A stretch of 64,000 nucleotides of DNA, from contig JAJDWI010000010.1 of the NCBI GenBank assembly GCA_022825665.1, positions 2,912 to 66,911 on the forward strand. Reading direction: 5' to 3'. The notes under the pieces were generated by a model. The model saw only the letters and a list, made by a program, of their open reading frames with translations, was not told the origin of the DNA and did not search any database. How positions within the stretch are numbered: the first letter of the stretch is position 1; every line of letters begins with the position of its first letter. The stretch is from Candidatus Poribacteria bacterium (lineage in GTDB: Bacteria; Poribacteria; WGA-4E; WGA-3G). Both the position numbers and the translations under genes were made by a program. This document shows, one piece after another, positions 1 to 53,956 of this stretch.

Positions 1-906
1 GGCGTTGCACATTATAATAGTAACGTGTTGCCACGTAGTAAGAAATTTACGCAATACGGAGACCAAATTGCGCAGTGTGTTGAGGCAGCACATAAACACA
101 AACTTCAGGTTCATGTGTGGAAGATTACGTGGAATTTGGAAGGTGCACCAAAAGAATTTGTAGATGAACTACGAAAGGCAGGACGTACACAGGTTTCATC
201 TACAGGAGAACCTATTGATTGGCTCTGTCCTTCACATCCAGAAAATGTTAAGTTAGAATTGAATAGTATCATGGAAATTGTGCAGAATTACGATGTTGAT
301 GGGATACATCTGGATTATATCCGTTATCCAGGAAGCCATGCTTGCTTTTGCAAAGGATGTCGTAAAAGATTTATGCTGGCGACACGACGTTATATTACAG
401 ACTTTCCCGCTTCTGTTTTACCTAAAACGGGAGAATACGGGGAATCCTACAATAAATGGCGAGTCCATCAGATAACACGTTTAGTTCGTTTAATCAGCAA
501 AAGGGTGCGTGAGATAAAACCTCATGTTAAGGTATCGACTGCTGTTTTCGGTGGCTATCCATCGTGTGTTACATCCATTGGTCAGGATTGGATTTCTTGG
601 GCAAAAGAAGGTTATATTGATTTTGTTTGCCCGATGAACTATACTGAGGATTCCAAATATTTTACGGATCTTTTGGAAAATCAACTTGCTCTAATGCCAA
701 AAGATGTTGCGATTTATCCGGGTATCGGTGCTACTGCTTCTAATTCCTTACTAACAGCGGATGCTGTCATTGGTCAGATACATCTCGCACGGTTCTTAGG
801 GGCTTCGGGTTGGACAATTTTCGACTACTCTGTGAACATCTCGGATACTATCTTACCTGCCATTCAGATGGGGGTTGGCAAACGAAAAGCAACACCTACG
901 CATTGA
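1..906 (+). CDS. Glycoside-hydrolase-like family 10 (GHL10/DUF187-type) protein, 5'-truncated by the window edge
   Basis: The frame is open from nt 1, with no stop upstream of the GTG at 25, and ends at TGA 904-906. Motifs DGIHLDYIRYP and IDFVCPMNY fit my recollection of the GHL10 TIM-barrel family. Confidence 0.55.
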   Translation, partial: GVAHYNSNVLPRSKKFTQYGDQIAQCVEAAHKHKLQVHVWKITWNLEGAPKEFVDELRKAGRTQVSSTGEPIDWLCPSHPENVKLELNSIMEIVQNYDVDGIHLDYIRYPGSHACFCKGCRKRFMLATRRYITDFPASVLPKTGEYGESYNKWRVHQITRLVRLISKRVREIKPHVKVSTAVFGGYPSCVTSIGQDWISWAKEGYIDFVCPMNYTEDSKYFTDLLENQLALMPKDVAIYPGIGATASNSLLTADAVIGQIHLARFLGASGWTIFDYSVNISDTILPAIQMGVGKRKATPTH

Positions 907-969
907 CATAGTCAATTACTAATCTAAACATGAGTTTGATAATTAAATCCAATTACGCCTGTAGGTTGA

Positions 970-1036
970 ATTGAGGGACGAAACCCAACAGATAATGCTC
1001 TATAATGAGGAAAGATGTTGGGTTTCGTCCCTCAAT
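970..1036. repeat. Perfect 21-bp inverted repeat hairpin with a 25-nt loop
   Basis: attgagggacgaaacccaaca (970-990) is the exact reverse complement of tgttgggtttcgtccctcaat (1016-1036). It lies downstream of the GHL10 gene. Confidence 0.85.
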
Positions 1037-1038
1037 CC

Positions 1039-1127
1039 ATAGGTGTCAACTCAGTGATTCTTGCTTGTCTGAATTGCTTGTTGTCTGAACCAGGATTTAC
1101 AAGATTTCAGGATTTCCAGGATGAGAG
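1039..1127. repeat. Dispersed intergenic repeat module ('ataggtgtcaa...ttgtctgaacc...ggatttcc')
   Basis: About 85 bp is closely similar to 48716-48805 in the same orientation. A shorter copy, ttgtctgaaccaggatttacagg, lies near 52889-52922. Confidence 0.8.
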
Positions 1128-1270
1128 TATTGACAATCACGTTCCTTGCCAAGTATCTACTGTTCTGTATCTACTATTAATGATTATGTTTCAATTATTA
1201 GAAGGTGCTTTTGATAAGAAGCATCCTGTAAATCCTGTAATCCTGGGGAATGCCAAAAGGCAGTGAGTAT

Positions 1271-1310
1271 GCGGGCGAGGAAACCTCGCCCCTACGGAAT
1301 GTAAGAGGTG
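1271..1310. repeat. GC-hairpin + CCTAC repeat module (gcgggcgaggaaacctcgcccctacggaatgtaagagg)
   Basis: The stem is cgagg/cctcg. Related copies lie at 48961-48995, 52750-52770 and 52871-52896, and the 'aatgtaagagg' tail recurs at 4178-4190 and 4268-4280. Confidence 0.8.
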
Positions 1311-1336
1311 CTTAACACATTTACGAAAAACCCAAC

Positions 1337-2863
1337 TCAAAATTCAAGCAGCAGCTGCGGTATTATAGCGGCACTTCGCGTGGATTTTTCAACGTTATTC
1401 ACTTGATAAACAACTCTTGCTAAAGCACCTTCTGCGAAATGCCATGACAATGCTCCGCCAAGTGTTGTCCAAACCTGTTCATCTTGTTCTCGGTTGAATG
1501 TCATCGTATTATATCTTGCTGTATTTGGATTCCAGACATCATATTTCAACCGAATATCTAAGGTTTCTGTTAACGGCAATTCAGCGTGTAAATAATATCC
1601 CTCCACCGTTGCCTTACGATCTTCCGCAGGTATGGGAATATTTAGGTATTTTAACAGTTGTGTATCCTGTCCACGAACCCATTCCGCTGCTAAGTCAAAC
1701 CTCCATAACTTAAAACTTGTTGCGAGACCGACGCGGCGTTTGTATAACAAAGTTGATGGGTTGACATCACCATTTATCGGATTAAATGGATAGCTATTGC
1801 CATCAAAATAGGATGTTCCAAGCCATATCCGTTTACCGAAAATCGGTAGTGTGCCATTTAAATGTAAGAACAGTGGAGGGCTGTTATTTCGTATCGGTTT
1901 CAAAACACCACCACCGCTTCCGTGTGGACCGATTCGGATACCTGTTGTTATTGTCCCATCAGTCACAGTGCGTAAGGAATCCGGTCCATCGGCAAGTGAT
2001 AATGTATAAGAGACGGGTCCAACGAATCCGTTGAGTTGTAACCCGCGATCAGAAATAAAACCGATATTTTTCCGCACCAGATTGTATAAAGGATTAGCCG
2101 CAGCATCTGATTTAGTGTCAATGCCGAAACCGTGTCGAAACCGTCCAACTTTCAGCGATGCTCCTTTTGGTAAAACGGGAAGTCCTGTCAAAATAGCGTA
2201 GATAAAACCGTGGTCGTCCGCAACCTGTGTTCCTAAATGCGAGGTTGTCAACAACTGTTCTCCCAATATACTGACATGATCACCAACATTCGTTGTTACG
2301 ACAAACTCTGCAACATGGATGAGTGTTGTGCCGGTATCCCAATTAGTGGCATCGGGTACTAAGTCTTGTCCGCGCGTAATTCGACGAATATCTAATGCAC
2401 CACCAAATACTAAGTTTCCAAACGCACCGCCAAGAAAGTCTGAACCACCAGTATCTCCTGATGCTTCTACGTCATTAAAACTAAAAACATCCTCATCACC
2501 ACTCTCAAAGGCATCTTCCGATTCAGAAAGTTCGTCTGGAGACTCAGTATTATCAGGGGTGCTGGCAGCGTCTCCAGGATAGGAACGAGCGATAATTTCA
2601 GCGATGTTGCTGAACCCGTCTTTATCTGAATCCACCTCTGCGATACGGACGAAGGTTGACAGGTTCATCCCGTTGTGTAAGAAGGCTCTGCCATAGGGGT
2701 TCGGAGAGTCACCACCCTTTTTGGAGAAATGGCATACATTACAACCTCCTGCCCACTCATATTTTGAGCGGAACATCTTGTAGAACGCTGGCAGAGCAAA
2801 GGACTGTTCAGCAATTAGAATAAAAAAGAAAGCAATTGAAAAAGAGACAATGAATTTTCGCAT
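1337..2863 (-). CDS. Secreted protein: N-terminal single haem-c motif module fused to a putative outer-membrane beta-barrel (porin-like)
   Basis: It has a signal peptide, then CNVCH at aa 41-45 (nt 2729-2743), a DSDKDGFSN Ca-binding-type motif and an acidic linker. The C-terminal ~370 aa has alternating beta-strand character and ends ...LLLEF, a terminal Phe typical of OM barrels. Confidence 0.5.
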   Translation of the reverse strand: MRKFIVSFSIAFFFILIAEQSFALPAFYKMFRSKYEWAGGCNVCHFSKKGGDSPNPYGRAFLHNGMNLSTFVRIAEVDSDKDGFSNIAEIIARSYPGDAASTPDNTESPDELSESEDAFESGDEDVFSFNDVEASGDTGGSDFLGGAFGNLVFGGALDIRRITRGQDLVPDATNWDTGTTLIHVAEFVVTTNVGDHVSILGEQLLTTSHLGTQVADDHGFIYAILTGLPVLPKGASLKVGRFRHGFGIDTKSDAAANPLYNLVRKNIGFISDRGLQLNGFVGPVSYTLSLADGPDSLRTVTDGTITTGIRIGPHGSGGGVLKPIRNNSPPLFLHLNGTLPIFGKRIWLGTSYFDGNSYPFNPINGDVNPSTLLYKRRVGLATSFKLWRFDLAAEWVRGQDTQLLKYLNIPIPAEDRKATVEGYYLHAELPLTETLDIRLKYDVWNPNTARYNTMTFNREQDEQVWTTLGGALSWHFAEGALARVVYQVNNVEKSTRSAAIIPQLLLEF

Positions 2864-2924
2864 GGTAAATTCCTTATATAAAATACTTTTCGGATGTTAC
2901 TATCAACACTAACTGTTCAAGCAT

Positions 2925-3902
2925 TTAATACGATTCAAGGTCAATTTCTTCTTCGCTAAAACGGATGTGTGCCTGTTTTATTAGGGCATCAATCGCTTCC
3001 CACTGCTTACGCGTGTCGTCAGTTATACCGTTTTTATCAATTGCTTCAGCAAATTCTTTGAGCATTTTGCTAAACTTATCCTGCATCTCAACATATTCTT
3101 CTTTCTGATCAGCATTCTTCGGTGGCTCAAATTGAGAGATTGCTTTAGTATAGGTCGCGAGTTTTTTGGCAGCTTCAACTGCTTCCGCTTTGCCTTCCTC
3201 TGTGTCAAAATAGTCATAGATGACAAAATATTCATCCACCATTAAGATCATGAGTTCCTTAAGGTCTTCAACTTCAGGTAACTCTTCTGGTTCTTCAGGT
3301 TGTGGTTTCTTTTCCACATCTGTCTTTGGTTTGCGTTTAAGGAAAAGGGCATAACTCATGACCAATGTTTTTTTGGGAAGCAACGCGACTGCTTTTGAGG
3401 CTTCTTCCTGTCCCTTAACAGCCTCAATATCATCACCTACCTTAAAAGCATCGTCTATGCCTTTATCTATGAACTGTTTTAGGAACTTCTCTGATGTAAT
3501 CGCATCCGATTCTTTATGTTCATAGACAGCAACTTTTACCACTTTTCCCTTCATATTGAGACCAACAGCACCATCAATAGTCCCGCGCGGTCCCTTCACA
3601 TCAACAAATAATATTAAACCCATAGGTTTCTTTAGTTCACTAATTGCGATATAGAAGATCGGTTTATGGTCTTCTTGTCGTAATTTTGATCCGAGTTCTT
3701 TCTCAATTGATGCGATTTTCTCTTTTGTAAGCACAACATTTCGTTGAACAAATTTCTTTGCTTTTGGGAATATAGCCGCAAGTTTCTCACCGGGCCATTC
3801 TGTTTCGTGAGCATTACTAAAGAGCGGTGAAATTACCATTAAGAAAACTAACGCAAACATAATGCTTGAACTTTTGGAACGGTAGTGTTGGAATAACATC
3901 AT
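2925..3902 (-). CDS. Secreted protein with an FMN_bind-like domain and a C-terminal helical domain
   Basis: It has a signal peptide. The segment GLILFVDVKGPRGTIDGAVGLNMKGKVVKVAVYEHKES resembles RnfG/NosR-type FMN-binding domains, but the SGAT flavinylation motif is not evident. An acidic linker and a helical C-terminus follow. Confidence 0.4.
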   Translation of the reverse strand: MMLFQHYRSKSSSIMFALVFLMVISPLFSNAHETEWPGEKLAAIFPKAKKFVQRNVVLTKEKIASIEKELGSKLRQEDHKPIFYIAISELKKPMGLILFVDVKGPRGTIDGAVGLNMKGKVVKVAVYEHKESDAITSEKFLKQFIDKGIDDAFKVGDDIEAVKGQEEASKAVALLPKKTLVMSYALFLKRKPKTDVEKKPQPEEPEELPEVEDLKELMILMVDEYFVIYDYFDTEEGKAEAVEAAKKLATYTKAISQFEPPKNADQKEEYVEMQDKFSKMLKEFAEAIDKNGITDDTRKQWEAIDALIKQAHIRFSEEEIDLESY

Positions 3903-3952
3903 TAATCTCCTTCTAATGTAGTTGTCTGCTGCCGCTGTTTTTTATTACAGTC

Positions 3953-4368
3953 TATCTCATAAATCGTTAAACTGATCTCTTGCAGAAAATCACATTTTCA
4001 TCGTAGGGTGAAGTTGCCTCACTCCATAAGCGTGAATTTTGCGAGGAACGTTAGTGCATCTGATACACCTTTCGCCCCTCTGGGGCTAAGGTTATAATGT
4101 ATCACGTGTTCTATACACCTTTCGCCTCTCCGAGGCTTTAGTGTGCATGTCGTAGGTCGCTATGCACCGACCTACGATAATGTAAGAGGCGCAATGAATT
4201 GCGCGACTACAAACGCATCTTCTCCTTAAACTGACGCTTATACGAACGGGGAGACCCGTCCCTACGATAATGTAAGAGGCGCAATGAATTGAGCGACTAC
4301 AAACGCATCTTCTCCTTAAATTGACGCTTATACGGGGAAACCCGTCCCTACAAGTGATTTATGAGATA
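3953..4368. repeat. TIR-bounded mosaic repeat block (MITE-like)
   Basis: tatctcataaatc (3953-3965) is the exact reverse complement of gatttatgagata (4356-4368). The interior is built from hairpin modules shared with 52698-52836 and 48900-49030. Confidence 0.75.
4171..4334. repeat. Tandem duplication of a 74-bp unit at a 90-bp period
   Basis: cctacgataatgtaagaggcgcaatgaattg.gcgactacaaacgcatcttctccttaaa.tgacgcttatacg occurs at 4171-4244 and 4261-4334 with 2 mismatches. A related unit lies at 48985-49030. Confidence 0.9.
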
Positions 4369-4394
4369 CGATCCAGCAACAGCAGAACAGTATT

Positions 4395-5405
4395 TTAGTC
4401 TACAACTTCGACCATGAAAGTAGGAAACAGAATTTGATCAGCATGCTTGAGCTGTCCGAAAATCTGATATTTTCCTGCCTTTGAAAAAGTGGTCATGAGC
4501 ATCACCTTAGGTCCAAATTTCTCTGGAGTAATACCTTGATGTTGATGCCCTGTTGATTCTTTCTTTTTCATTTTATGTTCAGCATGCGGATCTTTCTCTG
4601 CCATTTTTTCCATTTTCCCACTCATAGGAACTGTACCATGCGTATGTAGTATACCATCTAAACGGGTACTTACGATAGCAAAATGCATCGGTGCATCTAA
4701 AAATGGAACAAGATCGGTGATCGGTTTTCCATCACGTGAAAAATGATAGGTAATATGAACCATCTCACCCACCTTAATCTGTTCAGGCACTTCTATTTTC
4801 ACCTGATATTCGGAAGTGCCATTTTCATCGGTAACGGAAATCGCTTTTGTGAACCGATCTCCACCTTCTTCCTTATAACCGAAAACTGTTTTTTCCGTAC
4901 GAAGGTCTTCAGATATATCCGCCATCTTCTTCTCACCCGCGACATCTACATACAAGTATTTTGCGAATTCGTTATCTGCGGTCATCACATCAAGTGCTAA
5001 TATGTATCTGCCGGCAAAGGGAAATGTGAAGTGCACTGTATAAGTTCCTTCAAGTTCCGCCATCATATCACGCGACTCAAAATCTTCTGGGTGGACATGT
5101 CCAACAGTCTGTAAATTCTCACTGACGATTAGCACGTGGAGAATCCGATCATGATGTATCATCAAATCGGTAAACGGTTCACCCATTGCATCGGTGAGTT
5201 TGAACATGAGAGTTGCAGGTTTCCCAACCTCAATTTTCTGCGGTTCAGTGTGAAGTGCAACATTTAAGGTGCTGGTTTCTTGTTTCTTATGTGTGTCATG
5301 CTTTGCATGTTGTTCAGCATAACTGAAGTTTACAAATAACAACATGGTCAAGACGATTGCTATGGCATTACGAAAAATGTAAAACGTGAAATTCCGGGCT
5401 TGCAT
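4395..5405 (-). CDS. Secreted His/Met-rich protein with two tandem Ig-like repeats (possible metal binding)
   Basis: It has a signal/TM segment and an internal duplication: IEVGKPATLMFKLTDAMGEPFTDL...LHVLIVSENLQTVGHVHP versus IKVGEMVHITYHFSRDGKPITDL...MHFAIVSTRLDGILHTHG. A Met/His/Lys-rich loop (MSGKMEKMAEKDPHAEHKMKKK) is also present. Confidence 0.4.
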   Translation of the reverse strand: MQARNFTFYIFRNAIAIVLTMLLFVNFSYAEQHAKHDTHKKQETSTLNVALHTEPQKIEVGKPATLMFKLTDAMGEPFTDLMIHHDRILHVLIVSENLQTVGHVHPEDFESRDMMAELEGTYTVHFTFPFAGRYILALDVMTADNEFAKYLYVDVAGEKKMADISEDLRTEKTVFGYKEEGGDRFTKAISVTDENGTSEYQVKIEVPEQIKVGEMVHITYHFSRDGKPITDLVPFLDAPMHFAIVSTRLDGILHTHGTVPMSGKMEKMAEKDPHAEHKMKKKESTGHQHQGITPEKFGPKVMLMTTFSKAGKYQIFGQLKHADQILFPTFMVEVVD

Positions 5406-5521
5406 TATTATTCCTCCAAGTATAATCCTTAGTAAAATAGGTATAATTAATAGTCAATTTCCATTGCAAGTGTAAGTAGATGGACAGAATAGTCGTTAAA
5501 TCTTCTGATTGAATGTACTCT

Positions 5522-5947
5522 TTAAGAACGGGTATTAGGAGGACCGCGGCGGGAAAGGTTGCGGTTGAGTGATGAGATAACTAATTTTGGTGGAAGAGTG
5601 AAATGAAGTAATTGTTCCTGAGCAACTGGCTGAGTTAAAAATAATGGAACGTTAGGGACAAGGTGATGTTCCACAGGTTCACGAACAGAGTCGGCATTGT
5701 ATGTATCATTAGGAAGAACAATTTCTAAACCTAATACACAGCACGATGTGTCTGTCTCTGACGGCGTTTCAGACTCCTCTGTTGCATCAGTCTTCGCTTT
5801 TTGGCAACAAGACGAAATAGATTCAGCAGCCGACATACTTCTGTTGCACATTTTGTGTTCATAAGCCGCACAGAAAAGCGGACATACGAAAGTAACACAA
5901 ACCAGTGCAACAAGTAATATCTGATATTGCCAATATTTATGTGTCAT
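5522..5947 (-). CDS. Small Cys-rich membrane-anchored protein, function unknown
   Basis: It has an N-terminal TM helix with several Cys, and CC pairs at SSCCQK and TSCCV. It is the first gene of the minus-strand cluster and is divergent from msrP. Confidence 0.4.
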   Translation of the reverse strand: MTHKYWQYQILLVALVCVTFVCPLFCAAYEHKMCNRSMSAAESISSCCQKAKTDATEESETPSETDTSCCVLGLEIVLPNDTYNADSVREPVEHHLVPNVPLFLTQPVAQEQLLHFTLPPKLVISSLNRNLSRRGPPNTRS

Positions 5948-6179
5948 TGCTCAAAACTCCACTGCTTCTTAATGATAGGGAACAAATTTATTCTTTTAGG
6001 GTATTATACACCACAATCTGAAATAGTTGCAAGAAAATAAGTAACATCAAAACACAGTCCTAAATAAGGATTGCACATGAAACAGGTAACCTGTATAATG
6101 TGTATCATACAATTAACCCAAATATAATATAGTTTCACAGTGTGAACATATAAGAGAATAAAAGTCAAAGGAGAATCCG

Positions 6180-7139
6180 ATGGCAAACATAAAGATTCCA
6201 AAAGGATGGGAGATCCCAGAAAACCGTATTACTCCTGAATCAGTTTATATTAATCGTAGAAAGTTCATCAAAGACCTCGGCATAGTAGGAGCGGGGGCTT
6301 TATCACTGTTCGGTTCGAGTGCATGTGCACAGAATAAAGGTGTAGCAAAACAACTTGAAGCTTATCAAAAAGAAAAACTCTCAGCAGTAAAGAATGAAAA
6401 TTTCACTGTCACAAGACCACAAACTAAGGAAATCGTCGCTGCAACCTACAACAACTTCTATGAGTTCACATCCTCGAAAAGTACCGTCTGGAAACGCGTT
6501 GAAAGGTTCAAAACGCGTCCGTGGGAAGTTGAAATTACCGGTCATGTTGAAAATCCGATGACCATAGATGTGGATGACTTAATTAAACAGATGCCACTTG
6601 AAGAGCGTATCTATCGTTTTCGCTGTGTGGAAACTTGGGCAATGGTAGTACCGTGGATCGGTTTCCCGATGAAAGCACTCCTTGAAAAAGTGCAACCGAA
6701 ATCTTCTGCAAAATACGTTCGGATGGAGACGTTTTTTGACCCTGATGTGGCATCACATCAAAACGATGCGCGTCTGCCGTGGCCCTATGTTGAAGGCTTA
6801 ACGCTCGCGGAAGCCATGAATGAACTTACACTTATGGTTGTTGGTATCTACGGACATATTCTACCACCACAACACGGCGCACCTCTGCGATTGATTGCTC
6901 CTTGGAAATATGGGTTTAAAAGCATCAAATCAATTACCAGTATAGAACTGACTGACAAAAAACCACGTAACTTTTGGAATGTTATTCTTCCGAGGGAATA
7001 CGGTTTTGAAGCAAACGTGAATCCAAAAGTTCCACATCCCCGTTGGTCACAAGCTTCTGAATGGATGATTGGCTCAATGGACCGATATCCGACAAAGATA
7101 TACAACGGTTACGGTGAATATGTAGCGCACCTTTACTAA
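6180..7139 (+). CDS. msrP: Protein-methionine-sulfoxide reductase catalytic subunit MsrP (YedY, molybdopterin)
   Basis: It has a Tat-type signal (RRKFIKDLG). NNFYEF, EERIYRFRCVETWAMVVPWIGFP, QHGAPLRLIAPWKYGFKSIKSI and HPRWSQA track E. coli MsrP along its whole length. Confidence 0.9.
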   Translation: MANIKIPKGWEIPENRITPESVYINRRKFIKDLGIVGAGALSLFGSSACAQNKGVAKQLEAYQKEKLSAVKNENFTVTRPQTKEIVAATYNNFYEFTSSKSTVWKRVERFKTRPWEVEITGHVENPMTIDVDDLIKQMPLEERIYRFRCVETWAMVVPWIGFPMKALLEKVQPKSSAKYVRMETFFDPDVASHQNDARLPWPYVEGLTLAEAMNELTLMVVGIYGHILPPQHGAPLRLIAPWKYGFKSIKSITSIELTDKKPRNFWNVILPREYGFEANVNPKVPHPRWSQASEWMIGSMDRYPTKIYNGYGEYVAHLY

Positions 7140-7175
7140 GGACAACGCTAATTTACGAATTCTGACATTCTCAAA

Positions 7176-7240
7176 GGTAGGAGAGAACTCCGATTCCCGA
7201 CTACAAACAGGTCGCGATTCGGAGATCGCTCCTACAGAAA
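7176..7240. repeat. Pair of inverted hairpin + CTAC modules directly upstream of serpin 1
   Basis: gtaggagagaactccgattcccgactac is followed by gtcgcgattcggagatcgctcctacag, and the two are diverged reverse complements. The second matches 55219-55244 and 52929-52953. Confidence 0.75.
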
Positions 7241-7272
7241 TAGCAAATTACAAACAAAGATGGAGGAAGCAG

Positions 7273-8535
7273 GTGAATAACAAACACATAGTCGGAAAAT
7301 CCGTGCCAAGTTTGATGATTCTCGTATTTCTGTTATTTGCCGGATGTTTTGATTCTGTTGTGGATACACTTAACCAAGCGAAGGAGGATGCTGAAGTTGC
7401 CTCCATAGATTCCAACGTTCCATCTGGAAATACCGAATTCGGTTTTAACCTATTCAATACAATCTGGGAATCTGAACAGAACCAGAATATCTTTATTTCT
7501 CCGTTCAGTGTTTCCACAGCCCTTGCAATGACCTTAAACGGTGCAGCTGGTGAAACAGAAGAAGCAATGATTGATACGTTACAACTACAAGGTATTACCA
7601 CCAATTCAATCAATTCCAGTTACTATCAATTACTCCAGACACTTCAGACATCAGACCCGAAAGTTACACTCACAATAGCAAACTCGCTTTGGGCGCGCGA
7701 AGGGGTGCCGTTCAAGCAGGATTTCCAACAGCGAAATAGCCAATATTTCAATGCGGAAATCACAAGCTTGGATTTTGCAGATCCAAATTCCCTAACAACA
7801 ATTAATCAGTGGGTAAACACCAACACAAACGGCAAGATCAAAAAAATACTTGATGAGATTGAGTCGAATGCAGTGTTATTTCTCATAAATGCAATCTATT
7901 TCAAAGGTGAATGGAAAACAGAATTTGACCCGTCAGCAACGAGTGATAGAGATTTCCATCTTGTAACTGGTAGCACAAAGCAAGTGCCAATGATGGCGAG
8001 GAAAGGTAATTACGCATACTACGAAAATCACCACGATAATTTCCAAGCGATTAGCCTTCCTTATGGAGAAGGACAGATGGGTATGTACATCTTCCTCCCG
8101 TCCAACAAATCCAACCTAAATACCTTTTTAGATTCATTGAACGCAGAAAATTGGGAAAATTGGATTTCACAGCTGCGGGAACAGGAAGTGATGGTCTATA
8201 TTCCAAAGTTCAAAATGGAATACGGAACAAAGGAACTCAACGACGCGTTGACAAGTCTCAGTATGGGTATCGCTTTTGATGATGATAACGCTGATTTCAG
8301 CCGTATGGCATCTTTAGACGATATCGGTGGCAATCTATATATAGAAAAAGTAGCACATAAAACCTTCATAGAAGTCAACGAGGAGGGTTCAGAGGCTGCT
8401 GCTGCAACCAGTGTTGGGATAGGGATTAGATCAATCCTACGTACAGTATTTAATGCGGATCGACCATTTTTCTTTGCTATCCGTGATAACGAAACAAAAA
8501 CGATTCTGTTTATGGGAACTGTTGTGGACCCATAG
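7273..8535 (+). CDS. Serpin (lipoprotein-type signal), predicted P1 = Arg
   Basis: GTG start lies 5 nt after GGAGGA. A lipobox-like LFAGC is present. Serpin hallmarks are FISPFSVSTALAMTLNGA, the hinge EEGSEAAAAT and DRPFFFAIRD. Counting 17 residues from the hinge Glu puts P1 at Arg386 (nt 8428-8430). Confidence 0.9.
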   Translation: MNNKHIVGKSVPSLMILVFLLFAGCFDSVVDTLNQAKEDAEVASIDSNVPSGNTEFGFNLFNTIWESEQNQNIFISPFSVSTALAMTLNGAAGETEEAMIDTLQLQGITTNSINSSYYQLLQTLQTSDPKVTLTIANSLWAREGVPFKQDFQQRNSQYFNAEITSLDFADPNSLTTINQWVNTNTNGKIKKILDEIESNAVLFLINAIYFKGEWKTEFDPSATSDRDFHLVTGSTKQVPMMARKGNYAYYENHHDNFQAISLPYGEGQMGMYIFLPSNKSNLNTFLDSLNAENWENWISQLREQEVMVYIPKFKMEYGTKELNDALTSLSMGIAFDDDNADFSRMASLDDIGGNLYIEKVAHKTFIEVNEEGSEAAAATSVGIGIRSILRTVFNADRPFFFAIRDNETKTILFMGTVVDP

Positions 8536-8579
8536 GATGTACGAAGTAGAAGTATACATTAAAAAGGAGACCTACTCTG

Positions 8580-9836
8580 GTGAACACAAAATATAGAAAA
8601 ATATGTGAAATAAATCTTATCCTCATGATGTGTGGATTGACACTACTTATTTTCATAGGTTGTGAACGTGAATTAGATCCAGAAATCATCAAAAGTGAAC
8701 CTGGAACTTTTGACCCAAATGTCGTCTCTGCTAATACCAAATTCGGCTTTAATCTATTCAATGAAATCCGAAAAATTGACCAAGATAAGAATATCTTTGT
8801 TTCTCCGTTTAGTGTTTCCGTTGCGTTGGCAATGACGTTAAACGGTGCAGCAGGTGATACAGAGCAAGCGATGGTCAATACTTTGCAGCTACAAGGGTTA
8901 GGCAACGAGTTAATCAATTCCGGTTATTCATACTTGAATCAGACACTTCAGACAGCAGATCCGAAGGTGACACTCACGATAGCAAACTCACTCTGGGGAA
9001 AACAAGGGATACCATTTAATCAGGATTTCTTGGATAGAAACGCACAATATTTCAACGCAGAGATTACAACACTGGATTTTAGCGATCCGAGTGCATCACA
9101 AACGATTAATATGTGGGTTGATAACAGTACCAATGGCAGAATACAGAAAATCGTAGACGATAACATTGACCCTCAAATGGTGTTATTTCTAATCAATGCA
9201 ATCTATTTCAAGGGATCTTGGCAAACAAAATTTGATTCCGAAAACACGCGTGATGCGGCGTTCCATCTTGAATCAGGAAGCACTAAGCAAGTGCCGATGA
9301 TGAATAGGACAGATGAATATATGCACTACGTAAACCTTGAGGATAATTTTCAGGCAATTAGCCTTCCTTATGGTGATGGACAGATGAGTATGTATATCTT
9401 CCTACCCTCGCGTGAATCCGATCTTAATACATTTTTGGATAGTTTGAATGCAGAAAATTGGGAAAATTGGATTTCACAGTTCCAAGAACGTAAAATATGG
9501 GTGCAAATTCCGAAATTTTCATTAGAATATGAAACAAGTCTTATTGATACGTTAACATCACTTGGTATGTCGGTAGCATTTGATGAAGGAAAGGCAGATT
9601 TTAGCCGTATGGCATCATTTGAGAACTTGGATAGAAATTTGTATATTGCAAAGGTGAAACATAAAACTTTCATAGAAGTTAACGAAGAGGGTTCGGAAGC
9701 TGCCGCAGTGACCGGTATCGGTATTGCTGTTACATCACTTCCACCACAGTTTATTGCAGATAGACCATTTTTCTTTGCAATTCGCGATAACAAAACTAAG
9801 ACGGTGCTATTTATGGGTACTGTGGTAGATCCATAG
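8580..9836 (+). CDS. Serpin paralogue (lipoprotein-type signal) with a different, one-residue-shorter reactive-centre loop
   Basis: The body is highly similar to the upstream serpin. It has lipobox-like FIGC and the hinge EEGSEAAAVT, and its RCL is GIGIAVTSLPPQF compared with SVGIGIRSILRTVF in serpin 1. Confidence 0.9.
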   Translation: MNTKYRKICEINLILMMCGLTLLIFIGCERELDPEIIKSEPGTFDPNVVSANTKFGFNLFNEIRKIDQDKNIFVSPFSVSVALAMTLNGAAGDTEQAMVNTLQLQGLGNELINSGYSYLNQTLQTADPKVTLTIANSLWGKQGIPFNQDFLDRNAQYFNAEITTLDFSDPSASQTINMWVDNSTNGRIQKIVDDNIDPQMVLFLINAIYFKGSWQTKFDSENTRDAAFHLESGSTKQVPMMNRTDEYMHYVNLEDNFQAISLPYGDGQMSMYIFLPSRESDLNTFLDSLNAENWENWISQFQERKIWVQIPKFSLEYETSLIDTLTSLGMSVAFDEGKADFSRMASFENLDRNLYIAKVKHKTFIEVNEEGSEAAAVTGIGIAVTSLPPQFIADRPFFFAIRDNKTKTVLFMGTVVDP

Positions 9837-48715: not shown

Positions 48716-49030
48716 ATAGGTGTCAATTTAGTGATTCTTGTCCATCTGAATTGCTTGTTGTCTGAACCAAGATGGACAGGATTACAGGATTTCCAAGATT
48801 AGGAGTTGGTGAGTATATATTCCGTTGTCCAGGATGAAAGGTTACCTTTTGCAAAGGAACATTGGCATACAAGTCTCTTATCCTGAAAATCTTAGTTCAG
48901 ACATAATACATGTCGTAGGTCGTTTTGCTCGTTCCGACCTACGGGACTGTATGTGAACATACAGGCGAGGAAACCTCGCCCCTGCGGAATGTCCGAGACG
49001 TAATGAATTAAGCGACTACAAACACATTTC
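48716..49030. repeat. Mosaic of dispersed repeat modules
   Basis: Region 48716-48805 matches 1039-1127. tgtctgaaccaagat pairs with atcttagttcagaca (about 48889-48903). The hairpins gtcgtaggtcg...cgacctacgg and caggcgaggaaacctcgcccctgcgg, and the tail gtaatgaattaagcgactacaaac, match modules in 3953-4368. Confidence 0.8.
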
Positions 49031-52531: not shown

Positions 52532-52697
52532 ATCTGTCTTTCCTCCATTTACCGGACTCTGTCCGGACAATAATCATAAGTAACTTATGTATATAAATAT
52601 CGCATTAATCGTATTCATGCTTGTAATTGTTTATATTATACGCTTTTGAATTTGATTTGTCAAATATTGGTGGTTTTTCTCAGGATTATTTATAGTA

Positions 52698-53006
52698 TAT
52701 CTTAAAAATCGTTTACCCGATCTCTGCAGAAGATCATATCTTCATCGTAGGGGCGAGGTTTCCTCGCCTCAGAATCAGAAAGGGAGTTTCTAATCGGGCG
52801 GGGAGACTCCGTCCCTACAAGTGATTTATGAGATACGCTCGCTCCGACCTACAGGACTGAATGTGAGAATGCGGGCGAGGCAACCTCGTCCTACGATGTT
52901 GTCTGAACCAGGATTTACAGGATAAGAGGTCGCGATACGGAGAGTTCTCCTACAAAGGGAAGCTTAATATTGAAAATAATAGGATTTGGAAAACTAAATG
53001 GCTCTA
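52698..53006. repeat. Mosaic of dispersed repeat modules
   Basis: Region 52698-52836 is a short version of the 3953-4368 element, with the same ends (tatcttaaaaatc...gatttatgagata). Hairpin + CTAC modules follow, then a 78-bp module (52929-53006) that matches 55219-55296. Confidence 0.8.
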
Positions 53007-53050: not shown

Positions 53051-53956
53051 ATGAGAGTTTTTATTCAAATAGGTCATGGCATTATTGGAGCTGGTGTAAT
53101 ATCGTTCCTCTGTATCTTCCAAGCAGGTAGTTTCGGTGAAGCGCGGCATACTATTAGCATCATAGGGGCAATTGCTATTCTTATTGCAAGTCTCTATCTT
53201 CTGAGAAGTCGTTGGATACGGTGGGGGAATCGACAGTTATGGCTAAAATACCATCAACGGCTTGCGTCTCTTGGTCTGTGTCTTGTGCTGTTCCATTCTG
53301 CATTTTATCCGCTTGCGTGGCATTCGTGGCTAACCTTTATTCTGGCATTGTCAAATTTAGGCACAGGAATAGCCGTCAGTCTTACTGCTCGTAAAACACG
53401 CCAGATACTGCTGAGATTCCATCTCATACTCGCACCAATTCTGTTGATTAGTATAGTCTTTCACGGACAAGCAAAACTTGACCATGATGACTTCTTTCCA
53501 CTTTCCGATGTGCATGATGTTCCGTGTGCGAAATGCCATACATCTGATCCCTTACTTTTTCATGTTGATACCACACCACAAAATGATTTGGACACTTCGG
53601 ATACGATTCCAGAAGATTTACATTGGTGGTTCATACAACACGATATAAAGATATCTCCGTCTGCTAAAATATCGGTCAGGGAAATCAGCAAGACATGGAA
53701 AATTGATGATGAAGAAAATCACCGTAGTTATATTGCCAAGAAAAAAACGGATCAACTTGCACTCTTTGCCGATTCTCCTTACCGCAGTTACACCTGCATC
53801 ACCTGCCACGAACATAACACACCAGAAATAATTTCTGCCCATGAACTGCACGGTGTTACTGATTATCACAGATGTCTTGTTTGTCATCAGACTGAATTAA
53901 ACGGTACACGATACGGCAGACAACGCACAAATTGGGACTACGACCCGAATTGGTAG
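53051..53956 (+). CDS. Membrane protein: 5 TM helices with conserved-looking His residues, fused to a C-terminal tri-haem c domain
   Basis: TM helices span about aa 1-140 (LVLFHSAFYPLAWHSW, ISIVFHGQ). Three CxxCH motifs are present: CAKCH 159-163, CITCH 249-253 and CLVCH 275-279. Confidence 0.5.
   Translation: MRVFIQIGHGIIGAGVISFLCIFQAGSFGEARHTISIIGAIAILIASLYLLRSRWIRWGNRQLWLKYHQRLASLGLCLVLFHSAFYPLAWHSWLTFILALSNLGTGIAVSLTARKTRQILLRFHLILAPILLISIVFHGQAKLDHDDFFPLSDVHDVPCAKCHTSDPLLFHVDTTPQNDLDTSDTIPEDLHWWFIQHDIKISPSAKISVREISKTWKIDDEENHRSYIAKKKTDQLALFADSPYRSYTCITCHEHNTPEIISAHELHGVTDYHRCLVCHQTELNGTRYGRQRTNWDYDPNW

Follow-up and report, generated by a model that had tools for sequence, protein, structure and literature searches.

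A porin fused to a CxxCH module in Poribacteria sponge symbionts and its probable place in a copper-linked envelope cassette

In the MtrAB and MtrCAB systems and in the Pcc complexes of Geobacter, a cytochrome carrying 8–10 haems is threaded through an outer-membrane barrel of 20–26 strands, as with the decahaem MtrA inside MtrB. Copper in the Gram-negative envelope is handled, as presently described, by the Cue, Cus, Pco/Cop, CopCD, and PCuAC/Sco/CtaK systems, and to our knowledge no copper-handling envelope system uses haem or the FMN_bind fold. Cytochrome and porin share one polypeptide in Cyc2, whose monohaem cytochrome part is joined to a porin of 16 strands, modelled on OprP (2O4V), and in which the motif AXPXFAR[Q/K][T/Y] lies 5 aa upstream of the CXXCH and the motif PXL 4 aa downstream (PMC8406198). 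Cyc2 is the Fe(II) oxidase of Acidithiobacillus ferrooxidans, of Mariprofundus (Cyc2PV-1), and of Ghiorsea (Cyc2TAG1) (PMC8406198, PMC13692758). The subject here is a cluster of four genes on the minus strand of a 64,000-nucleotide stretch of DNA (the window) from a Poribacteria sponge symbiont (contig JAJDWI010000010.1; host assembly, 4.5 Mb, 95% complete), one of which encodes a 508-aa protein with an N-terminal CxxCH module and a C-terminal porin-like barrel. From its gene context, the cluster is read as a haem-tagged-porin envelope system for copper handling, with a probability of about 0.55, and is most likely the Poribacteria version of a conserved copper-linked envelope cassette that is apparently undescribed. 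Literature searches turned up no description of the cassette (papers on Poribacteria and copper were judged by title or abstract only), and nothing was found in searches on Aq_1264, on the GEGP diheme family, or on an FMN-binding domain combined with CsoR, the outer membrane, and cytochrome c.

Architecture of the putative haem-tagged porin

The four co-oriented open reading frames (ORFs) encode proteins of 508, 325, 336, and 141 aa, and all were present on the minus strand where the initial annotation had placed them. The 508-aa haem-module/barrel protein (positions 1337–2863) has 77 close homologues in Poribacteria, with distant homologues at ~35% identity, and the order Cys-rich protein, YtkA-like protein, FMN_bind-like protein, barrel protein is kept in four divergent Poribacteria genomes. 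These close homologues and the conserved order exclude chance ORFs and mark the four genes as real and conserved.

From its N-terminus on, the 508-aa protein consists of a signal peptide (judged by eye), a helical CxxCH/DxDxDG module of ~85 aa, an acidic disordered linker of ~45 aa, and a porin barrel. The CNVCH, DSDKDGFSN, and terminal LLLEF motifs picked out at first reading were all found, at residues 41–45, at residues 78–86, and at the C-terminus, respectively. The Asp/Glu-rich linker (positions 2423–2566, minus strand; about aa 100–147) was delimited by its composition and by pLDDT values <50 at residues 105–145, and the porin-like β-barrel domain that follows (positions 1340–2422, minus strand; about aa 148–508) ends in LLLEF as its β-signal. 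An AlphaFold2 model of the full-length protein, with a 42-sequence alignment as input, gave an all-β region at residues 149–507 with 18 strand segments (pLDDT about 80–90) and a helical N-terminal part of low pLDDT. Searched against the PDB with Foldseek, the β-region matched outer-membrane porins only, the best being OprP (2o4v), OprO, OmpU, PorB, DcaP, and Omp32 (top matches, E about 1e-11, probability 1.0). By this model the C-terminal region is, as had been proposed from the β-rich sequence, an outer-membrane porin barrel (of 16–18 strands) and not a soluble fold.

No match to the barrel was found in Pfam, in NCBIfam, or among PDB sequences, a search of the PDB with the family profile was also empty, and four distant barrels searched against Pfam gave nothing significant and no CopB. 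The family is rare, with about 25 clusters in a library of 1.84 billion proteins, and its sequence conservation is unusually strong for a porin; invariant residues among 42 sequences include G154, D158, R160, H183, E186, E202, R241, R243, D249, and D253. These residues sit on strands 2–5 and on the loop after strand 5, which, going by the secondary-structure string, would take the position of the constriction loop L3 of classical porins. Distant barrel homologues are mostly haem-less proteins of 380–440 aa that have a signal peptide of their own and carry an LYLPF/LLSF motif at the C-terminus. The fusion of module and barrel recurs in four lineages or more (Poribacteria, P0078, P0238, and P0231). 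The sequence comparisons mark the porin of the 508-aa protein as a distinct, strongly conserved family. A second haem-porin copy, decayed with in-frame stops, was seen besides an intact copy in one genome (G035:C7:50569-51288).

The haem-type module (positions 2549–2794, minus strand; about aa 24–105) contains the CNVCH motif at 2729–2743 and the calcium-type DSDKDGFSN loop at 2606–2632. Across 64 diverse modules, C44, H45, and E89 were invariant and C41, Y35, G58, D78, D80, and D82 occurred in ≥90%, so that the haem-binding motif first proposed for this protein is kept in its homologues. A representative library held 756 significant matches, most of them (more than 700) to the module alone. 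The module heads many unrelated secreted proteins (with Big-like, FG-GAP/VCBS-like, and SLH-type C-terminal repeats, as judged by eye), its commonest setting being the N-terminus of ~260–290-aa proteins in which it is fused to an FMN_bind-like domain; it is best described as an autonomous domain, of a family separate from that of the barrel.

A dedicated AlphaFold2 run on the module gave a small all-helical domain (mean pLDDT 86.5), and Foldseek found no fold neighbour of this confident model in the PDB. Weak matches below cut-off were obtained to diheme_GEGP (NCBIfam) and to Temptin_C (Pfam), and a module profile search returned insignificant matches only: to cytochromes c in the CxxCH region, to EF-hand proteins and lanmodulin in the DxDxDG loop, and to RnfG in the fused FMN_bind-like part. 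The host genome encodes CcmF/CcsA-type haem-c maturation genes. A conserved CXXCH, an export signal, and a maturation system in the genome, as expected of a haem-c protein, are thus all present, and the module likely binds one c-type haem. Three proteins of the representative library (P0220, P0232, and P0242) carry 4–7 tandem CxxCH/DxDxDG modules each, with a CxxCH in every copy of the two that were inspected (P0220 and P0232); such proteins would form a multihaem class with one calcium-type loop per haem that appears to be undescribed.

Partner genes and the wider cassette

The FMN_bind-like periplasmic protein (325 aa; positions 2925–3902, minus strand) was likened to FMN_bind proteins from a score just below the cut-off and from a cross-phyla alignment. 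It scored 21.6 bits against FMN_bind (PF04205; cut-off, 22), with weak similarity also to rnfG. The flavinylation motif [ST]GA[ST] was found in none of 27 stand-alone FMN_bind-like homologues (0/27), the position of the Thr being taken by Glu or Lys, which extends to the family the initial remark that the protein lacks an obvious flavinylation site; flavin-based electron transfer was ruled out, as the motif is lacking. All 27 homologues, drawn from across phyla, have a hydrophobic leader with a cleavage-type site (small-x-[A/G]) at its end and, directly behind it, the motif H-[E/D/Q]-x-x-[W/F]-P; 19 of them also have a later x-H-x-E motif. Since the cleavage-type site directly precedes the conserved His, the mature protein is predicted to start with this residue, in the window’s protein His32 (codon 3807–3809), followed by E-x-x-W-P. 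An N-terminal His is a hallmark of the copper sites of CopC, YcnI, PmoB, and the lytic polysaccharide monooxygenases (LPMOs), and by analogy with CopC and YcnI the FMN_bind-like protein would bind Cu(II) via its N-terminal His. The Poribacteria protein has an extra C-terminal helical domain of ~130 aa that was also seen inside unrelated ORFs of 505–528 aa (G032:C1:1114412, G024:C1:2887869, and G079:C1:2949440), and this occurrence within unrelated Poribacteria ORFs marks the extension as a separate, mobile domain.

The secreted His/Met-rich protein (336 aa; positions 4395–5405, minus strand) consists of two tandem YtkA(CtaK)-like Ig domains. It passes the YtkA-like family PF13115 at residues 197–236 (31.0 bits; cut-off, 25.9), and one half aligns with the other (33% over 51 aa, E 6e-6), so that the two tandem Ig-like repeats that had been described from the letters alone are borne out as an internal duplication with a YtkA-like domain; the His/Met-rich loop described with them is present as well. 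Eleven His are invariant in 26 homologues (H84, H85, H90, H103, H105, H241, H254, H256, H287, H289, and H321). The YtkA of Bacillus subtilis is CtaK, which together with the YcnJ YtkA domain helps to assemble CuA; a part in copper delivery is known only for these two B. subtilis proteins (PMC13344008). The Cys-rich, membrane-anchored protein (141 aa; positions 5522–5947, minus strand), defined by the conservation of its Cys residues, has five invariant Cys (C22, C34, C47, and the pair C69–C70) and a C-terminal PP motif; the CC pairs to which the initial annotation drew attention are present in the sequence, but only C69–C70 is conserved as a pair, the partner of C47 being variable. A similar Cys-rich protein occurs in one cassette of another locus (L021).

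The YtkA-like and FMN_bind-like genes are separated by a MITE-like (miniature inverted-repeat transposable element) block of 416 bp (positions 3953–4368), with perfect terminal inverted repeats of 13 nt and an internal tandem duplication of 90 nt; the repeat block said to split the cluster is therefore real. The block is present in a 98%-identical relative, in a 92% relative the match to the spacer stops after its first 41 nt, and in more distant Poribacteria (L012–L015) the same two genes are spaced about 50–130 nt apart. This pattern points to a recent mobile-element insertion that interrupts an ancestral unit and not to an ancestral operon boundary. Found in the closest relative only, the block behaves like a young MITE; it shares its ends with a short copy at 52690–52840, and fragments also match 48966–49027. 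The short copy near 52.7 kb is adjoined by a gene for a 301-aa protein (53051–53956), in which a multi-helix membrane part is followed by a C-terminal part carrying three CxxCH motifs; the protein has weak cytochrome c7/c3 matches. An Rfam scan of positions 1–9000 of the window gave chance miRNA-like matches only, and a promoter and terminator scan of the cluster gave signals not above chance.

Outside Poribacteria, 32 barrel loci were taken from species-representative genomes and their ORFs were scanned with hidden Markov models (HMMs) built for the cassette parts. The loci came from Bdellovibrionota (including Bacteriovoracales and Silvanigrellales), Myxococcota, Nitrospirota/Candidatus Manganitrophaceae, Omnitrophota, and Marinamargulisbacteria. 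Wherever the flank suffices, the barrel is accompanied by three partners: a membrane protein of ~210–250 aa with the Pfam domain Aq_1264_TM, whose gene usually overlaps the barrel start codon; a stand-alone FMN_bind-like protein (FMNb1); and a fusion of the CxxCH module with an FMN_bind-like domain. In this set as in Poribacteria, module and barrel, separable families though they are, always occur at one locus. Aq_1264_TM has invariant His (a SHAH motif and one earlier His), Met, Asp, and Glu residues and a WW-x2-K motif. Four proteins (P0288, P0284, P0326, and P0353) unite the CxxCH module, the FMN_bind-like domain, and Aq_1264_TM in one polypeptide (Rosetta-stone fusions), and these fusions, with that of module and barrel, argue that the four parts work together.

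Aq_1264_TM and the barrel are seemingly joined in one ORF in P0079 (L030, 3625–5633), but this was set aside as a probable frameshift or gene-call artefact, since an inner-membrane helical domain is hardly to be expected on an outer-membrane barrel and the stop and start of these genes usually overlap by a few bases. Two Bdellovibrionota cassettes (L003/L022) hold an extra His-rich, β-rich protein of ~257 aa (5559–6332 in L003 coordinates) between the CxxCH-FMNb gene and Aq_1264_TM. This protein has an N-terminal HEH...HHALVHPFLTHMGMPD segment, an SFH end, and no Pfam match, and may be a second small outer-membrane protein.

The copper link was drawn from these relatives. A CsoR-family repressor, often as the first gene, lies within the cassette at no fewer than eight loci (at least 8, with L003/L022 and L020/L050 counted once each), and all of the complete CsoR-like repressors (7/7) have Y-C, 24 residues, and H-x3-C, which we take to be the Cu(I)-ligand fingerprint of Mycobacterium tuberculosis CsoR. 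In NCBIfam they score best against the copper sensor RicR, with FrmR and RcnR behind it. The commonest Pfam families among 235 scanned proteins encoded within 5 kb of the cassettes were P-type ATPases with HMA, HMBD, or YHS domains (n = 13), multicopper oxidases (n = 6), resistance-nodulation-division (RND) pumps (n = 6), DUF305 proteins (n = 4), and Cupredoxin_1 proteins (n = 2). Individual loci held a multicopper oxidase and a YHS/HMBD ATPase (L020), adjoining CopC, CopD, DsbD, and thioredoxin (L019), or a CusB/CzcB-type pump and an ATPase (L003). By their neighbourhoods, the related cassettes in other phyla lie in copper-defence regions.

Within the Poribacteria family, the barrel is found in 35 of 52 genomes (all 28 of the window’s genus, with a patchy spread beyond it; none in the order’s other families) and the YtkA protein in the same 35, an exact match (35 present, 17 absent) that confirms the co-occurrence of cluster genes elsewhere, while homologues of the FMN_bind-like protein occur in 52/52. 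In three barrel-less genomes of the sister genus (L054–L056; example, L054 = G075:C2:535000-554500), the slot between the homologues of the 141-aa and FMN_bind-like proteins holds a CusCBA-like pump set, composed of a CusA-like RND pump with HMBD, a CusB-like fusion protein with four HMBD, and two OEP proteins, together with a His-rich protein bearing a YHS domain and a small outer-membrane protein that is MetA-like. The Cys-rich protein stands at the island edge in barrel-type and CusCBA-type Poribacteria alike. In the three sister genomes the N-terminal His of the FMN_bind-like protein is replaced by Gln, Asp, or Arg, and among the genomes compared this His is retained only where the barrel is present. 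A barrel remnant directly follows the FMN_bind-like gene in one further genome (G053). The island next to msrP is thus seen with two alternative metal-handling contents. With this CusCBA-like pump and, near related cassettes, CsoR-type Cu(I) repressors, copper ATPases, and multicopper oxidases, the option that the cluster handles copper or another metal, offered at first as an alternative to an electron conduit, is the better supported one.

The msrP gene itself (positions 6180–7139, plus strand; NCBIfam MsrP, 427.7 bits) is divergent from the cluster and is regarded as context and not as a core part. It was found in 56/56 family genomes. Of the relatives that allowed both to be placed, most have it no farther than about 5–15 kb from the cluster, though several genomes have the two megabases apart. 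No MsrQ/Ferric_reduct gene was found in the whole 95%-complete host genome.

Probable copper handling and its alternatives

If the cluster is a haem-tagged-porin system for copper handling, the haem module would hang in the periplasm on its acidic linker, since the N-termini of porins are periplasmic. The FMN_bind-like, YtkA/CtaK-like His-rich, and Cys-rich proteins would be copper carriers in the periplasm or membrane, and the porin would be a copper-selective outer-membrane channel, with its invariant His/Asp/Glu/Arg residues on strands 2–5 and on the loop at the L3 position. Where the pore opens to the periplasm, the tethered haem would switch copper between Cu(I) and Cu(II), and the copper would then be passed on or expelled; this redox step at the pore, taken by itself, is a tentative proposal. 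A role under copper excess, in detoxification or export or in the manner of PcoB, is somewhat favoured over controlled entry, because CsoR control in the relatives implies expression under copper excess. The wider idea that the four-part cassette is a haem-dependent copper redox and transport machine acting across the whole Gram-negative envelope, previously unknown, is possible but falls short of probable. Were it true, this would be the first copper-homeostasis system with a c-type haem and with an FMN_bind fold as a histidine-brace-like copper carrier, and the Poribacteria version would be a rebuilt form of it, with the haem module joined to the porin and a CtaK-like protein recruited.

Several points weigh against copper handling by a haem-tagged porin. 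The Poribacteria cluster has no CsoR gene and no Aq_1264_TM, the latter being absent from the host genome altogether (best E-value, 0.32), so that the copper link within Poribacteria comes from the YtkA domain, from the proteins’ content of His/Met/Cys, and from what the island holds in its alternative form; the 32 loci of other phyla are all from uncultured metagenome-assembled genomes (MAGs). His-rich sites would fit Ni, Zn, and Co too, and a second cuprous oxidase would be partly redundant beside the multicopper oxidases of many cassettes. Haem binding by the module is read from the CxxCH alone, in a domain with no fold relative in the PDB, and among the 64 modules no conserved Met or His besides the CxxCH was found as a sixth haem ligand. 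Because no distal Met or His is conserved, the haem could be five-coordinate or could take Tyr35 or a ligand from a partner. In the full-length model the strand count may be 16 or 18, and the module, of low pLDDT, has only a tentative placement relative to the pore.

The alternative that survives best is a metal oxidase or electron gate of the Cyc2 type, in which Fe(II), Mn(II), or Cu(I) would enter the porin and be oxidised by the fused haem, the electrons then passing to periplasmic carriers for energy gain or detoxification; in functional terms the protein would then be a divergent fused cytochrome-porin. The architecture of Cyc2, including the OprP template (2O4V), the independent recurrence of the module-barrel fusion, and the presence of cassette members in Candidatus Manganitrophaceae all speak for such an enzyme. 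Part of the module, a loose ‘A-x-P-x-F-x-R...Y...CxxCH’ pattern with ‘A-x-P-x-F-x-R’ upstream of the CxxCH, resembles the Cyc2 motif, so that the haem segment may be distantly homologous to that of Cyc2. The published signatures themselves, however, were nearly absent: PXFAR[Q/K][T/Y] occurs in 0/126 module-bearing proteins (the 508-aa protein has ALPAFYKMF, then 9 residues) and PXL at +4 after the CxxCH in 3/126, the 508-aa protein not among them, while the spacing from the A-x-P-x-F-x-x core to the CxxCH is mostly about 11 residues, compared to 5 in Cyc2. Membership in the Cyc2 family was rejected on these published motif criteria only. Further, the AlphaFold2 model has the ~85-aa module on a 45-aa disordered linker without packing onto the barrel, haem is lacking in most of the family’s barrels, the cluster holds no Cyc1-like or other downstream cytochrome partner, and the context is that of copper resistance and not of lithotrophy. 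A Cyc2-type function for this locus is accordingly judged unlikely.

Still less probable is that the envelope system serves some other metal (Ni, Zn, or Co) or solute, or is a general cation porin, the CxxCH then being a metal or disulfide-type site and not a haem site. His-rich sites are not specific for copper, and the module, for its part, has no conserved distal ligand, a weak similarity to Temptin_C, which is a disulfide-bonded domain, and fusions to many unrelated surface proteins, all of which would suit this explanation. Nonetheless, every copy, the 4–7 tandem ones too, has a His immediately following the second Cys, which is the signature of haem c, the CsoR fingerprint is of the Cu(I) type with RicR outscoring RcnR and FrmR, and the neighbours (multicopper oxidases, YHS/HMA ATPases, CopC/CopD, and CusB-like proteins) are of copper type. 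The weakest explanation, that the haem module and its partners stand in for MsrQ as the electron supply of an orphan periplasmic MsrP, can draw on the divergent msrP nearby in most placeable relatives, on the missing MsrQ/Ferric_reduct gene, and on SorAB, of the same molybdoenzyme family, which has a monohaem cytochrome c partner, but is very improbable: MsrP in all 56 genomes, against just 35 of 52 for the barrel and the YtkA protein, indicates that MsrP works without these two, several genomes have msrP and cluster megabases apart, Oxidored_molyb does not appear in the list of the 25 commonest neighbour families for the 32 other-phyla loci, and the copper- and HOCl-stress regulation of Escherichia coli msrP would account for the adjacency.

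Under the copper-handling reading, the cassette connects with copper regulons, in at least five phyla, four families that are nameless or nearly so: a new porin family, a CxxCH/DxDxDG module of very wide distribution, an FMN_bind domain that is de-flavinylated and has an invariant N-terminal His, and Aq_1264_TM. Haem on the module, Cu(II) on His1 of the FMN_bind-like protein, and a cation-selective pore are predicted from this link. For the sponge symbionts, it would mean two alternative metal-defence contents at one chromosomal island.

Comparison with described systems

Compared to the copper systems of the envelope (PcoB/CopB, CopC/CopD, YcnI/YcnJ/CtaK, CusCBA-CusF, and CueO/PcoA), the cluster shares a set of putative periplasmic His/Met/Cys carriers combined with an outer-membrane channel. 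The YtkA-type domain of the 336-aa protein is like that of CtaK and YcnJ, the N-terminal His of the FMN_bind-like protein recalls the copper sites of CopC and YcnI, and the cassette is linked, as copper systems are, to CsoR, CopA-type ATPases, multicopper oxidases, and Cus-like pumps. By Pfam and NCBIfam, however, CopB/PcoB, CopC, CopD, and CusF have no sequence relation to the cluster proteins, and the presumed carrier here has an FMN_bind-like fold and is accompanied by a putative c-type haem module. The barrel finds its best fold matches in OprP and OprO (Porin_O_P), but has no sequence-family match to them and conserves His/Asp/Glu/Arg residues in place of the OprP arginine ladder. The 325-aa protein, similarly, is weakly similar in sequence to PF04205/rnfG and thus to the FMN_bind proteins RnfG, NqrC, NosR, and PplA, from which it differs in that the flavinylated Thr is replaced in 27/27 homologues and a conserved N-terminal His-Glu-x-x-Trp-Pro is found instead.

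With MtrAB and Pcc, the locus would have in common a cytochrome c functionally coupled to an outer-membrane barrel. Here, though, a single CxxCH is tethered outside a 16–18-strand porin (18 strand segments) and would be unable to bridge the membrane alone. An Mtr-like transmembrane conduit was rejected for its one haem and small barrel, and the one-polypeptide analogue of porin-cytochrome conduits envisaged in the initial annotation is unlikely, as one haem on a flexible linker at the periplasmic N-terminus of a porin of this size cannot span the membrane.

Nor is a cytochrome-porin in one polypeptide new as a concept, since Cyc2 already embodies it (PMC8406198). Cyc2 and the 508-aa protein are alike in having a signal peptide, a single N-terminal CxxCH, and a C-terminal porin in one polypeptide, with OprP (2O4V) as the best template for both. 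They are unlike in that the haem segment here is an ~85-aa module with a DxDxDG loop set on an acidic disordered linker of ~45 aa, that module and barrel belong to independent families with most family barrels haem-less, and that the barrel is strongly conserved, whereas that of Cyc2 is poorly conserved (PMC8406198). The gene context also differs, being one of copper homeostasis here and of iron oxidation for Cyc2. In all, the comparisons characterize the 508-aa protein as a new variant of the cytochrome-porin idea, independently assembled by domain shuffling. The architecture would then have arisen independently, in a functional setting other than that of Cyc2, and in metagenome surveys a porin bearing a CxxCH need not be an iron oxidase or an electron conduit.

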